64,000 nucleotides of DNA from Escherichia coli (GCF_013122565.1 NZ_CP053258.1); one strand, 5' to 3'; shown: positions 17,901 through 44,615, numbered from the stretch's first letter. Notes: generated by a model not told the origin, from the sequence alone. Numbers and translations: made by a program.

Positions 17901-18260
17901 TTAACCTACGATTTCCAGTACCTGCTCCGGTGGACGACCAATCCGCGCTTTGCCATTCGCGACCACAATCGGGCGCTCCATCAGCTTCGGATTATCCACC
18001 ATTGCCTGAATTAGCGCCTCTTCGCTAAGCGAACTGTCAGCCAGGTTCAGTTCTTTATAAAGATCCTCTTTCTGGCGCATCAATTCACGGGCGCTATTCA
18101 TCCCCAGCATTTTCAGCAAATCGCTCAGCGTTGCCGCATCGGCGGGTGTCTCAAGGTAGAGCACCACTTCTGGCTCCACGCCGTTTTCTTTCAGCAGGTT
18201 CAGCGTTTCCCGGCTCTTTGAACAGCGTGGGTTATGGTAGATTTTTACCTGTTTGGTCAT
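17901..18260 (-). CDS. yfgD: ArsC/Spx-family thioredoxin-fold protein
   Basis: 119 aa; MTKQVKIYHNPRCSKSRETLNLLKENGVEPEVVLYLETP...; conserved N-terminal Cys of the ArsC family. Confidence 0.88.
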   Translation of the reverse strand: MTKQVKIYHNPRCSKSRETLNLLKENGVEPEVVLYLETPADAATLSDLLKMLGMNSARELMRQKEDLYKELNLADSSLSEEALIQAMVDNPKLMERPIVVANGKARIGRPPEQVLEIVG

Positions 18261-18280
18261 TGTTCTTCCTTTAATGCGAA

Positions 18281-19744
18281 TTACATCTTGGTATAAGGCT
18301 TAAAGCGTTCCTGCAGCTGGCGCAACTGGTCGATGCGAGCATCGTAACGTGCTTGTTGCAGGCTGCCTAATTTCACCTGCGAACTGGCGCTACTCAACAA
18401 GGAAATAGCCTGATCGAGTCGCCCGGCGAGCGCATAACCTTCTGCTCGCGCAGCCAGTTCCTGATCGCGGTTATTTAGCGCGGCTTCCGCCTGTGCCAGT
18501 AAATCCCAGCCGTTGCTGTCATCTTTATTGTTAAAAGTGTAGCGATTGAGAATATTGGCCGCTTCTTGTGGTTGACCGCCTTGTAGATAAGCGTTCGCCA
18601 GGTTGAGCTGCAACACAGGATTGGTGCGCAAATCACGGGCATTTTTCAGGCGATTGATTGCCTCATTGGCTTTGTTTTGCCCAAGATCGATATCGGTAGC
18701 CAGATCGAGATACCATGCGTTGCCAGGTTCTGCCGCCAGTAACGGTTGCAGCGTTTTACGCGCCTCGTCGTATTTATTGGCTTCCATCGCCTGTAAAGCA
18801 CGACCATATTGCGCCGCTCGTTGCTGACGAACGTTTCCTTTCGCCCATTCATCCAGCAAATCACTGGTGAGCTGGTTACGTCCGGAATTATACATCCCCA
18901 GTGTGCGCGCTTTCGCCAGATAGAAATCTTCCGACGACTGCACCACCATCGGGCGCATCTGATTAGCACGGTTGCGGGCATCTGCCAGACGACTTTCCGG
19001 CAAAGGGTGAGTCAATAAAATTTCCGGCGGGCGCGAGGAGTAACGCGCCTGATCGAGTAATTTTTCGAGGAAGGTTGGCATCGCCTGCGGATCGAATCCT
19101 GAGCGTTGCAGCACCTGAATACCAATGCGGTCCGCTTCCTGTTCATTTTGCTGGGTGAAACTGATCATCCCCTGGCGCGTTCCCGCCAGTGTACCGGTCA
19201 GCGCCGCCATCCCTGCCTGCGGACTGGCCATCGCCAGTAAAATAGAACCTAACGCGCCGACCCAGGTCAGCGGCGCGCTGCGCTGCTGATCTTCCATCGC
19301 TCGCGCCAGGTGACGTTGGGTGACGTGGGAGATTTCGTGCGCCATAACTGAAGCCAGTTGACTTTCGTTATCGGAATAACGGAACAGGGCAGAGTGCAGC
19401 ACCACGTTGCCGCCAAAGAAAGCAAAGGCGTTAATTTCGTCGTTGTTGATCAGAAAGAAATGAAACGGTGTCTTAACCGAATTGGCATGCGAAACCAGAC
19501 GCATCCCCAGCGAATTAATATATTGCGTTAACAGCGGGTCATTAATTAACGGCGCGCTGCCGCGTAGCTGGCGGACATAATAGTCGCCCATCTGCATTTC
19601 CTGACCAATGGAAAGCGTGCTTCCTGCGGAGGTTCCCATATCCGGCAAGGTGTCTGCGCTGTCGGCAAACGCCGGGGCTACCTGACCAATGGTCATAGCA
19701 GCAATGAGGGTTGCAACCAGGTTTTTTTTCAACTGCCTGAACAT
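18281..19744 (-). CDS. bepA: Periplasmic beta-barrel assembly-enhancing M48 metalloprotease with TPR domain
   Basis: 487 aa; signal peptide; HEISH zinc motif ([12 protein letters not shown]); C-terminal TPR-like repeats; equals YfgC. Confidence 0.92.
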
Positions 19745-19956
19745 AACCTCTATCCTGTATTTCTGGAGATAGTCATTTGACCGATACTGTGAAATATCGT
19801 TCCCACCGCGCCGCCTTTGAGTGTAACGGCGAAGATTAGCCCACTCAAATGACTTTTCAGTTTCCTGAATCCGTCATAAAAAGCGAAGTCTTTTTTGTGA
19901 CATTTCGATACAATTGCGGATCGCAATCCCGCTCTTGAGGTTCAGGGAAGGTCTTT

Positions 19957-21018
19957 ATGCTCGAAATGTTGATGCAATGGTATCGCCGCCGTTTTAGCGA
20001 CCCGGAAGCGATTGCCTTGCTGGTTATTTTAGTTGCCGGATTTGGCATTATCTTTTTCTTTAGTGGCCTGCTTGCTCCGTTGCTGGTGGCTATTGTGCTG
20101 GCCTATTTGCTGGAATGGCCAACCGTGCGCCTGCAATCTATTGGCTGCTCCCGCCGCTGGGCGACGTCGATTGTATTGGTGGTTTTCGTCGGTATATTGC
20201 TACTGATGGCGTTCGTGGTACTGCCTATCGCCTGGCAGCAGGGCATCTACTTAATCCGCGATATGCCGGGGATGCTCAATAAGCTTTCTGACTTTGCCGC
20301 CACGTTGCCGCGCCGCTATCCGGCGTTAATGGATGCGGGCATTATTGATGCAATGGCCGAAAATATGCGCAGTCGGATGCTGACCATGGGCGATTCGGTG
20401 GTGAAAATTTCCCTCGCCTCGCTGGTCGGTTTGCTGACCATAGCCGTCTATCTGGTGCTGGTGCCATTGATGGTCTTCTTCCTGCTGAAAGACAAAGAGC
20501 AGATGCTGAACGCCGTTCGTCGGGTGCTGCCGCGTAACCGCGGACTGGCAGGACAGGTGTGGAAGGAGATGAATCAACAAATCACCAACTATATTCGCGG
20601 CAAAGTGCTGGAGATGATCGTGGTGGGGATCGCCACCTGGCTGGGGTTCTTACTCTTCGGGCTGAACTATTCGCTGCTGCTGGCGGTGCTGGTCGGCTTC
20701 TCGGTACTTATTCCGTACATTGGCGCATTTGTGGTAACCATTCCGGTGGTTGGCGTGGCGCTATTCCAGTTTGGTGCAGGCACGGAATTCTGGAGCTGCT
20801 TCGCGGTGTATCTGATTATTCAGGCGCTGGACGGCAACCTGTTAGTACCGGTGTTGTTCTCCGAAGCGGTTAACCTGCATCCGCTGGTGATTATTTTATC
20901 GGTGGTGATCTTCGGTGGTTTGTGGGGATTCTGGGGCGTATTCTTCGCCATTCCGTTGGCAACGCTGATCAAAGCCGTGATTCACGCCTGGCCTGATGGG
21001 CAAATAGCGCAAGAATAA
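19957..21018 (+). CDS. perM: AI-2E family (PerM) inner-membrane permease
   Basis: 353 aa; polytopic membrane protein matching YfgO/PerM. Confidence 0.88.
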   Translation: MLEMLMQWYRRRFSDPEAIALLVILVAGFGIIFFFSGLLAPLLVAIVLAYLLEWPTVRLQSIGCSRRWATSIVLVVFVGILLLMAFVVLPIAWQQGIYLIRDMPGMLNKLSDFAATLPRRYPALMDAGIIDAMAENMRSRMLTMGDSVVKISLASLVGLLTIAVYLVLVPLMVFFLLKDKEQMLNAVRRVLPRNRGLAGQVWKEMNQQITNYIRGKVLEMIVVGIATWLGFLLFGLNYSLLLAVLVGFSVLIPYIGAFVVTIPVVGVALFQFGAGTEFWSCFAVYLIIQALDGNLLVPVLFSEAVNLHPLVIILSVVIFGGLWGFWGVFFAIPLATLIKAVIHAWPDGQIAQE

Positions 21019-21022
21019 TCTT

Positions 21023-21057
21023 CAGCCCGACGAACTGTTTCGCCGGGCTGATTTTTT
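21023..21057. terminator. Rho-independent terminator between convergent perM and focB
   Basis: cagcccgacgaactgtttcgccgggctgatttttt: 7-bp GC stem plus T-tract; overlaps the focB stop codon. Confidence 0.7.
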
Positions 21058-42894: not shown

Positions 42895-42899
42895 TTAGC

Positions 42900-43100
42900 T
42901 TACTTCTTCGGTTGATCCTTTTTCGGCCAGTCGTCGTCATCGTCCCACTTATCGTTGAAATCACGATGCGGGGGAAGCTCCGGCTTGTTGGCGAGAAATT
43001 TCTTATGGTCGACGCGCTTGAGATCTTTAATCACGTTCAGCAGGACGCCTACCAAAAAGACAATCACCAGAATCCACCAATATTTAGCCAGCCAGTCCAT
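42900..43100 (-). CDS. ypfN: Small membrane protein YpfN (UPF0370)
   Basis: ORF trimmed to [27 protein letters not shown]... (66 aa); one TM helix and an acidic DDDDDW tail. Confidence 0.8.
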
Positions 43101-43127
43101 GCTTATTTCCTCTTGCAGAACCACTCA

Positions 43128-44255
43128 TCAGGCGACGAGCTGTTCCATGATACGTTGATACATACGGGCAAGTAGCTGCAGGTCGGCAGCGTTCACACAT
43201 TCATTAATTTTATGAATAGTGGCATTGACCGGCCCGAGTTCCACCACCTGCGCCCCCATGCGAGCAATAAAGCGCCCGTCGGACGTTCCGCCTGTGGTCA
43301 GTAGCTGCGGTTTAATTTCATTATAGTGCTCAACCGCGTTAACGACCGCATCCACCAGTTTACCGCGCGCGGTCAAAAATGGCTGCCCGGAAAGCCACCA
43401 ATCCACCGTATAGCGCAGTTGATGTTTTTCAAGCAGGGCAAGCACCTGCGCTTTGATCATCTCATCAGTCAGTTCGGTGCTGAAGCGGAAGTTAAACTGC
43501 ACAAACAGTTCACCCGGAATAACGTTGTTACTGCCCGTTCCCGCCTGAATATTGGCAATCTGCATACTGGTCGCCGGGAAGAATTCATTGCCCTGATCCC
43601 ACTCAATAGCCACTAATTCATTAAGGAAAGGTGCTGCGCGATGTACCGGATTGTCAGCCAGATGTGGGTAGGCCACATGCCCCTGCACGCCATGAATGGT
43701 AAGGTTGCAGGTTAATGATCCGCGACGACCATTTTTCACCACATCACCTACCACTTCGATACTCGACGGTTCGCCGACCAGGCAGTAATCGAGACGCTCA
43801 TTACGCGCCATTAACGCTTCGACGACTTTTACCGTACCGTTGTGGGCACTGGCTTCTTCATCAGAAGTGATCAGAAATGCCAGTCGCCCCGTATGGTTGG
43901 GATGTTGTGCGACAAAACGTTCTGCCGCTACCACCATCGCCGCCAGCGAGCCTTTCATATCTGCCGCACCGCGCCCGAATAACATGCCGTCACGAATGGT
44001 TGGTTCAAACGGCGGATTGATCCAACGGTCGGCGTCGCCAGGCGGCACCACGTCGGTATGCCCGGCAAAGGCTAACGTTTCACCCTGCCCACGCCATGCC
44101 CAAAAATTCTGCGTATCGGCAAAGTCCATGCGTTCAACGGTAAAACCGATCGCCTGCAAACGTTCAATCAACAAAGCCTGGCATCCTGCGTCATCAGGAC
44201 TCAGGGAAGGGCGGCGAATAAGCTGTTGTGTCAGCTCAATAACCGGGCACGACAT
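43128..44255 (-). CDS. dapE: Succinyl-diaminopimelate desuccinylase
   Basis: 375 aa; [26 protein letters not shown]...; M20 peptidase family. Confidence 0.95.
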
Positions 44256-44258
44256 AGA

Positions 44259-44615
44259 CTACACCTCATGGAAAAATTGCTGATAACTGGAATCACTGAA
44301 ACCCAGCAGCATAGGCTTACCAGGCGCGCAGAGCAATGGACGTTTGATAATTGCAGGCATTTCAGTCATTAATGCCGCCGCAGAGGCCGCATCGGTGATT
44401 TTATTGCGGGTGGTTTCGTCCAGTTTACGCCAGGTTGTACCACGGGTGTTGAGTAACGCTTCCCAGCCTAATTCGTTGATAAAACCGTTCAATAATTCGC
44501 TGTCCAGCCCATCGACGCGGTAATCATGAAAACGATAGTCGATGTTATTGGCTTCCAGCCAACGGCGAGCCTTTTTAATGGTGTCACAATTTTTGATGCC
44601 GTAAAGTGTAACCAT
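44259..44615 (-). CDS. yffB: ArsC/Spx-family protein YffB
   Basis: 118 aa; [32 protein letters not shown]...; 3 bp upstream of dapE. Confidence 0.9.

Follow-up and report, generated by a model that had tools for sequence, protein, structure and literature searches.

Two ArsC-superfamily genes of Escherichia coli, yfgD and yffB, are very probably members of two independent operons

Two genes for small ArsC-type proteins, yfgD and yffB, lie 26 kb apart in a 64,000-nucleotide stretch of Escherichia coli DNA (GCF_013122565.1, NZ_CP053258.1; termed here the window), and each is the immediate neighbor of an envelope-related gene, bepA and dapE, respectively. An initial annotation of the window had regarded them as ArsC/Spx-family paralogues arranged in parallel, each being the promoter-distal gene that follows its envelope-related partner. 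This raises the question of whether the two gene pairs share a common logic. The analysis described here indicates that they very probably constitute two independent and already annotated operons, and that the ArsC-type genes they carry, one in each operon, come from different branches of the PF03960 (ArsC) superfamily. The genes and operons concerned are already annotated and largely published, and the finding is an ordinary one.

The window is a segment of the E. coli chromosome, as two test stretches matched 5425 of 5426 complete E. coli genomes at 95–99.3% identity. Both yfgD and yffB are core genes of this species and are annotated by RefSeq in 5425 of the 5426 complete genomes. Inspection of the sequence confirmed the two open reading frames (ORFs) exactly as first described, at 17901..18260 (yfgD) and 44259..44615 (yffB), both on the minus strand and encoding proteins of 119 and 118 amino acids (aa). 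RefSeq names them “arsC: arsenate reductase (glutaredoxin)” and “yffB: ArsC family reductase,” respectively. Transcription on this strand, which carries all four genes of the two pairs, runs from high to low coordinates. bepA is read from 19744 to 18281 and is followed by yfgD after a spacer of 20 nucleotides (nt; 18261..18280), so that yfgD is indeed the promoter-distal gene. By contrast, yffB is read from 44615 to 44259 and is followed, after 3 nt (44256..44258), by dapE (44255 to 43128) and then by ypfN (43100 to 42900), the distance between dapE and ypfN being 27 nt. It follows that yffB precedes dapE and is promoter-proximal, an order that agrees with published accounts of the locus (PMC7648144, PMC3946193). 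The statement that yffB follows dapE was therefore incorrect, and promoter-distal placement holds for yfgD, the last gene of its operon, and not for yffB, the first gene of its own. The supposed parallel arrangement of the two pairs is a misreading of strand and does not exist. Other elements of the initial annotation stood, namely the short same-strand gaps of 3–20 bp, the absence of ars genes near either gene, and the co-transcription of each pair, which fits the short gaps, the absence of an internal promoter-like or convincing terminator-like site in simple scans, and the published operons.

Both proteins matched PF03960 (E = 2e-26 for YfgD and 2.6e-22 for YffB), and each contains one N-terminal cysteine (C13 in YfgD and C10 in YffB), as expected of the ArsC-type thioredoxin fold that had been proposed for them. 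They may be termed paralogues at this superfamily level, but the close relationship that the term implied was not borne out. No BLASTP alignment of YfgD with YffB was obtained at E ≤ 100, and identity between them in a multiple alignment was 16%. Given that there is no detectable sequence similarity, yfgD and yffB do not represent a tandem duplication; they lie within a conserved synteny block and are not a recent duplicate pair. If E. coli K-12 has three PF03960 genes, which we take to be arsC, yfgD, and yffB, the chance that any two of them would fall within 26 kb of each other on a 4.64-Mb circle is ∼3%.

Family models clearly separated the two proteins. The model for glutaredoxin-type arsenate reductases (TIGR00014; cutoff 106.05) returned 162.1 bits for YfgD and only 17.8 bits for YffB, and the “ArsC family reductase” model (NF008107; cutoff 121) returned 229.5 bits for YffB and did not match YfgD. 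The Spx/MgsR subfamily model (TIGR01617; cutoff 75.05) was exceeded by YffB, at 116.8 bits, and not by YfgD, at 49.5 bits. The closest solved structures also differed, being 3rdw, 3f0i, and 1i9d for YfgD and 2kok and 1rw1 for YffB. A neighbor-joining tree was constructed from an alignment of 163 sequences, which comprised 104 representatives of YfgD-like clusters, 56 YffB proteins obtained by translating genome loci, and the three proteins from E. coli. In this tree, a YffB clade and a clade uniting YfgD with ArsC were each monophyletic, and mean identity was 46–53% within clades and 18% between them.

The separation extends to the active site. With the numbering of ArsC, residues H8, C12, S15, R16, R60, R94, P95, and R107 were 94–100% conserved across 105 YfgD-like sequences. 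The 57 YffB-like sequences shared an invariant C12, R94, and P95 but were characterized at the remaining positions by G8, K16, N60, and F/Y107. YffB retains only one arginine of the triad, with asparagine at the R60 position and phenylalanine or tyrosine at the R107 position in all 57 sequences. This division agrees with the diagnostic sets published for the superfamily, in which R60/R107/P108 together with H8/N9/S15 mark arsenate reductases and N60/K93 mark the YffB/YusI paralogues (PMC5593903).

YfgD has the sequence features of a glutaredoxin-type ArsC. The protein is 42% identical to E. coli K-12 ArsC from the arsRBC locus (E = 6e-31), and its residues C13, R62, R96, and R109 align with C12, R60, R94, and R107 of ArsC; H9, N10, and S16 are also present. 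Like R773/E. coli ArsC (TIGR00014; 1i9d), YfgD thus has the PF03960 fold, the HNPxC motif, the Ser15/Arg16 pair, and the Arg60/Arg94/Arg107 triad, and the structures closest to it, 3rdw and 3f0i, are named as arsenate reductases. Unlike ArsC, its gene lies outside an ars operon, the neighbors in the window being bepA, yfgO, and hda, and is co-transcribed with bepA under sigma-E. The plasmid-borne ArsCs of ars operons were only 38–44% identical to YfgD and formed a separate group. The YfgD clade is a chromosomal, ars-independent branch of the glutaredoxin-type ArsCs. Judged from these residues, YfgD would most likely be a glutathione/glutaredoxin-coupled reductase with ArsC chemistry, in which the Cys13 thiolate would attack an oxyanion held by Arg62, Arg96, and Arg109, and it may represent a housekeeping copy that is constitutive and independent of ars, not a determinant of resistance.

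The first gene of the yfgD operon, bepA (18281..19744, minus strand), encodes the M48/TPR β-barrel assembly-enhancing protease (NF052400, 742.6 bits against a cutoff of 570; Pfam Peptidase_M48 and TPR). A sigma-E-type motif, GGAAC-N18-TCAAA, is present at 19776..19803 (minus strand), its end lying 32 nt before the bepA ATG. A scan of the 64-kb window with the sigma-E promoter consensus gave two matches, this motif among them, compared with 0.37 expected by chance, and a version of the motif with one mismatch is present at another locus (L098). Sigma-70 and terminator scans revealed no promoter-like or terminator-like site inside the bepA-yfgD spacer, which carries the Shine-Dalgarno-like sequence AAGGAAG. 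The upstream −35/−10 motif and the uninterrupted spacer are those of a single sigma-E operon. At the 3′ end of the transcript, between the convergent genes yfgD and hda, the segment 17770..17900 (minus strand) folded into nested hairpins at −54.9 kcal/mol (z = −5.1). These hairpins, which from their sequence we take to be repetitive extragenic palindromic (REP) elements of the kind found in bacterial interspersed mosaic elements (BIMEs), probably act as a 3′-end stabilizer for the bepA-yfgD mRNA. No RNA family was matched in an Rfam scan of 17000..46000. Published work describes bepA-yfgD as a sigma-E-dependent bicistronic operon (PMC2731931, PMC7075262, PMC5927463), with sigma-E induction of 2.4-fold for yfgC (bepA) and 1.5-fold for yfgD (PMC2731931) and a conserved decay pattern for the operon mRNA (PMC5927463). 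The sigma-E promoter drives a bicistronic mRNA; of its two products, BepA passes to the periplasm and YfgD, which has no signal peptide, remains in the cytoplasm.

Genomic contexts were sought for 12 diverse YfgD-like proteins that were 46–79% identical to the query, and 10 of these were informative. Only the homologues with 79 and 67% identity have bepA as their immediate upstream neighbor in the same orientation, and the loci of these two share the E. coli synteny of yfgO, hda, uraA, and upp. For a 58% identical homologue, bepA was nearby but separated by a thioredoxin-like gene on the opposite strand, and the remaining informative homologues had no bepA within 4 kb. Confinement of the bepA linkage to close, Enterobacterales-like relatives implies that the bepA-yfgD fusion is specific to this lineage. 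A different partner recurred elsewhere. A wrbA-like gene lay directly downstream in 5 of the 10 informative contexts, with the WrbA-type NAD(P)H:quinone oxidoreductase gene (NF002999) often overlapping the yfgD-like gene at the stop and start codons, and in three of these five cases a gene for a DUF2069 membrane protein was also part of the unit. This arsC-like/wrbA-like/DUF2069 unit usually adjoins hda, and a divergent AhpC/TSA gene is frequent upstream (loci L086–L089, L095–L097, L106, and L107). None of the 10 contexts contained arsR, arsB, or acr3. Such an organization points away from arsenic resistance and toward a redox module for quinones or peroxides. The attachment to bepA would represent an operon fusion in Enterobacterales-like genomes, with the gene elsewhere in the γ-proteobacteria heading a unit next to hda.

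In the second operon, yffB is followed by dapE (43128..44255, minus strand), which encodes succinyl-diaminopimelate desuccinylase (NF009557, 585 bits) and whose ATG is positioned 3 nt past the yffB stop codon. The ribosome-binding site of dapE (GAGGTG) is situated in the final codons of yffB, and on the basis of this placement and the 3-nt gap it is proposed that dapE is translationally coupled to yffB. The third gene, ypfN (42900..43100, minus strand), encodes a 66-aa small membrane protein (UPF0370; PF13980 and NF010185). A sigma-70 promoter, TTCATA-16-TTTAAT, at 44804..44831 (minus strand) was assigned to the operon, as its sequence is identical to that of the yffB entry in a publication in which yffB through ypfN is listed as one transcription unit with this promoter (PMC3946193). 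The gene order reported elsewhere is acrD, ypfM, and then yffB→dapE→ypfN (PMC7648144). Sigma-70 and terminator scans gave no internal signal in yffB-dapE; the published yffB promoter itself scores below the rule applied in the sigma-70 scan, which is uninformative at that site. Upstream, a terminator-like hairpin after acrD (45079..45103, minus strand), with an 11-bp stem followed by a T-rich tail, isolates the yffB operon from transcription further upstream. The sigma-70 promoter in the AT-rich spacer between ypfM and yffB drives yffB first. Comparison with the published sigma-E bepA(yfgC)-yfgD unit and the K-12 yffB-dapE-ypfN unit revealed the same genes, order, spacing, and promoter sequences, with no difference.

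The ∼380-nt AT-rich yffB/ypfM intergenic region (44620..45000) also contains the divergent small gene ypfM, with a promoter (TTCACC-17-TAGAAT; 44942..44970, plus strand) identical to its published entry, and H-NS has been flagged for this spacer (PMC3946193). In Salmonella, yffB has been reported as a target of the small RNA SdsR and as derepressed in a fur mutant.

To what extent yffB is linked to genes for diaminopimelate (DAP) synthesis was assessed in other genomes with a profile built from a three-sequence YffB alignment, scanned against one genome per species. The best 80 of at least 595 hits were retained, and 78 of these had more than 1 kb of sequence downstream. Neighbors were located by tblastn with proteins from the window together with DapC and DapD from the loci, and their identities were confirmed with NCBIfam models, which recognized DapC (TIGR03538), long and short DapD (TIGR03536 and TIGR00965), GlnD, and Nth. 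Initial protein searches had returned only Enterobacteriaceae, and diversity came from a search of representatives, the genome scan, and chromosomes filed as plasmids. Many plasmid records of the PLSDB collection in which yffB occurs are in fact whole or partial chromosomes, for example those of E. coli (NZ_OL790696.1, 4.8 Mb), Neisseria gonorrhoeae (NZ_CP119142.1, 2.17 Mb), and Acinetobacter baumannii (NZ_CP104448.1, 4.1 Mb), and yfgD and yffB occur together on an “E. coli plasmid” of 29 kb (NZ_CP019906.1).

Genes dapE, dapD, and/or dapC adjoined yffB in 76 of the 78 informative species-level loci. In 65, dapE was at most 125 nt downstream of yffB on the same strand; in a further nine, dapD was adjacent to yffB, with dapE 0.3–4.3 kb further downstream; and two had dapD and/or dapC only. 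The two loci with no dap gene were from Brucella tritici and Roseibium. Unbiased clustering of the neighbors in 30 loci from outside the Enterobacterales recovered DapE in 27, DapD in 17 (10 long and 7 short), and DapC in 15, along with GlnD in 11, a VanY-type M15 peptidase in 9, and Nth in 6. DapF had been considered as a redox target encoded nearby, but no DapF-sized family recurred beside yffB in this clustering, and this candidate was set aside.

Gene order around yffB was variable. The yffB-dapE arrangement was found in Enterobacterales, Aeromonas, Vibrionaceae, Alishewanella, and Orbaceae; dapC-dapD-yffB-dapE in Chromatiaceae, Marinomonas, and several γ-proteobacterial metagenome-assembled genomes; and dapC-(nth)-yffB-dapD...dapE in genomes labeled Pseudomonadales or Cellvibrionaceae, as well as in Dasania, in Halioglobus, and in further γ-proteobacterial metagenome-assembled genomes. 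In Methylomonas, dapC and dapD were 2.8–3.8 kb upstream of yffB-dapE. The β-proteobacterium Ralstonia solanacearum (CP025986.1; L099) has dapC-dapD-hypothetical (137 aa)-yffB-dapE-CYTH-prmB on one strand. The outer flanks also vary, with acrD in enterics and glnD elsewhere, and in several lineages the yffB stop codon overlaps or almost touches the dapE start codon. Functional coupling classically shows itself in this way, as a conserved set of partners whose order and flanks vary. Literature searches retrieved no paper that discusses a link of yffB to dapC, dapD, or dapE. The initial annotation had counted as contradictory to it unrelated subfamilies with no conserved linkage to upstream neighbors, and in this respect the outcome was mixed: the subfamilies are distinct and the bepA linkage is lineage-restricted, but the yffB-dapE linkage is broadly conserved, with yffB as the upstream gene.

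A gene for a VanY-type M15 D-Ala-D-Ala carboxypeptidase (PF02557) was observed directly after dapE in 30 of the best 80 yffB loci (L021, L027, L029, L031–L040, L044–L051, L056, L059, L060, L068, L075, L076, and L080–L082; mostly at ∼7480–8250), in taxa that include Yersinia, Dickeya, Photorhabdus, Serratia, Hafnia, Budvicia, Edwardsiella, Aeromonas, Vibrionaceae, and Alishewanella. Its presence after dapE in these relatives and its absence from the window imply that the wider operon is yffB-dapE-(M15 peptidase)-ypfN.

YffB is 48–54% identical to two proteins of solved structure, PA3664 of Pseudomonas aeruginosa (1rw1) and BR0369 of Brucella melitensis (2kok). It contains the residues of the YffB family, G6, C10, and K14 forming a GxxxCxxxK motif with a single cysteine, and N56 and K91 corresponding to the Asn60/Lys93 pair. 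The YffB protein of the window is an ordinary member of the family (PA3664, BR0369, NF008107), with nothing structural to set it apart. The Brucella protein is a monomer with a single cysteine and one arginine of the triad, and it binds glutathione beside the GxxxCxxxK motif; glutathione binding has been reported for both the Brucella and the Pseudomonas homologues (PMC3169414). One record in the plasmid collection names the family “FIG138056: a glutathione-dependent thiol reductase.” With its nucleophilic cysteine and one arginine retained, YffB is most likely a monothiol glutathione-dependent thiol reductase, and conservation of its neighborhood suggests a role tied to the succinylase branch of DAP synthesis (DapD, DapC, and DapE). 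Among the 76 DapE proteins encoded in linkage with yffB, Cys25 (in a GCQ motif) was invariant and Cys158 was conserved in 75. On sequence grounds, these two cysteines are candidates only for redox-sensitive sites or YffB targets.

Taken as a whole, the evidence permits a joint proposal that is possible rather than probable, namely that YffB is a dedicated thiol-redox or regulatory accessory of the succinylase DAP branch, for example reducing DapE Cys25 or another enzyme of the pathway or removing a glutathione adduct, and that YfgD, separately, is the “ArsC-independent” arsenate reductase of E. coli. An accessory role of YffB would explain its embedding among dapC, dapD, and dapE in several γ-proteobacterial groups and one β-proteobacterium. 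Several observations weigh against the main interpretation, that of two independent operons with the protein functions proposed above. The sample of the best 80 loci is biased to relatives of E. coli and consists mostly of Enterobacterales, and the yffB-dap linkage was absent from the α-proteobacterial examples as well as from the single examples of Acinetobacter, Neisseria, and Sinorhizobium. In one relative (L083), the region ahead of bepA gave no match to the sigma-E motif. YfgD, at 119 aa compared with 141 aa, lacks the ∼22-residue C-terminal tail of ArsC, and literature searches found no biochemical activity for E. coli YfgD or YffB. Deletion of arsC renders E. coli ∼10-fold more sensitive to arsenate (PMC6176005), from which it follows that YfgD is no substitute for ArsC in resistance at native levels. 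Lastly, a YfgD-clade protein from a hydrothermal-vent metagenome (P0398) has been named “Uncharacterized protein YfgD, not an arsenate reductase,” a label for which a literature search found no evidence. What that name asserts is a real, if less than even, prospect: despite its ArsC-type active site, YfgD may not be an arsenate reductase in vivo and may act on another substrate within a quinone/peroxide redox module. The lack of arsR, arsB, and acr3 in the 10 informative contexts is consistent with such a role, as are the recurrent operon with a WrbA-type oxidoreductase and DUF2069, often beside a divergent AhpC/TSA gene, and the separate grouping of the plasmid ars-operon ArsCs at 38–44% identity. 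On the other hand, the residues that arsenate reduction is known to require are all 94–100% conserved across the 105 representatives, YfgD scores above the equivalog cutoff of TIGR00014, and E. coli lacking arsC still reduces >94% of the As(V) supplied, although the authors of that work favored GstB (PMC6176005). Reduction on this scale indicates that an additional reductase exists. With an intact arsenate reductase active site and ars-independent expression, YfgD is a candidate for this residual activity, and a contribution to the ArsC-independent As(V) reduction of arsC mutants is plausible from its sequence.

Three further readings concern YffB or both proteins. Like Spx/MgsR of Firmicutes (TIGR01617; 1z3e and 3gfk), YffB has the shared fold, the N-terminal position of the cysteine, and a score above the subfamily cutoff (116.8 against 75), and Spx structures are its next-best matches in the Protein Data Bank (E = 4e-9 to 2e-5). 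Combined with the position of yffB as first gene of the cluster, these features might point to an RNA polymerase-binding regulator of dap or envelope genes rather than an enzyme. Such a function is improbable. YffB, a proteobacterial protein, does not contain a CXXC redox switch, the corresponding residues being C10-D-T-I13; the second position was never cysteine in the 57 sequences, and the position of ArsC Ser15 was isoleucine, valine, or methionine in all of them. Moreover, at 118 aa it is without the longer C-terminal region of the 131–132-aa Spx chains, its Brucella homologue is monomeric and binds glutathione, and the authors of that study judged an Spx-like mechanism unlikely (PMC3169414). 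The invariant basic pocket-like residues K8, K14, K15, R17, H30, N56, R63, K64, K91, and R92 suggest a small-molecule site instead. A second reading, in which neither linkage has functional meaning and both genes are passengers kept by synteny inertia, is doubtful but carries some weight: yfgD adjoins bepA only in close relatives, its broadly shared neighbor hda mostly has a convergent or opposite-strand orientation, and most of the 80 yffB loci are from Enterobacterales, in which synteny is expected. It is difficult to reconcile, however, with the occurrence of yffB beside three different genes of the succinylase pathway, in no fewer than four arrangements, while the outer flanks change, and with stop and start codons that overlap or almost touch in several lineages. 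The reading of the initial annotation itself, that ArsC/Spx-like paralogues are deployed alike as promoter-distal redox partners after envelope-related genes under one functional logic, is very improbable. Both proteins belong to PF03960, both operons hold envelope-connected genes (BepA and DapE), and a VanY-type peptidoglycan peptidase follows dapE in many relatives; nevertheless, yffB is promoter-proximal, pairwise comparison of the two proteins detects no similarity and their active sites differ, the bepA linkage is confined to close relatives and the yffB-dap linkage is broad, and DapE is a cytoplasmic biosynthetic enzyme but BepA a periplasmic protease.

The second match in the sigma-E scan, GGAACTT-N16-TCAAA at 36624..36652 (plus strand), falls within the dapA ORF (36113..37009) and precedes the bamC ORF (37023..38060) by ∼370 nt. 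The motif probably serves bamC (and purC) as an internal sigma-E promoter, and purC has been listed among sigma-E-induced genes (PMC2731931).

For the two protein families, the consequences differ. Were YfgD a second arsenate reductase, this would bear on the design of arsenic biosensors. YffB has been structurally characterized for two decades, and its gene is tightly and variably linked to three genes specific to the succinylase branch of DAP synthesis. DapE is an antibacterial target, to which an accessory factor translationally coupled to it would be relevant. The tie between YffB and DAP synthesis is the only lead to emerge here and a modest one, but if true it would provide a testable function for the YffB family.

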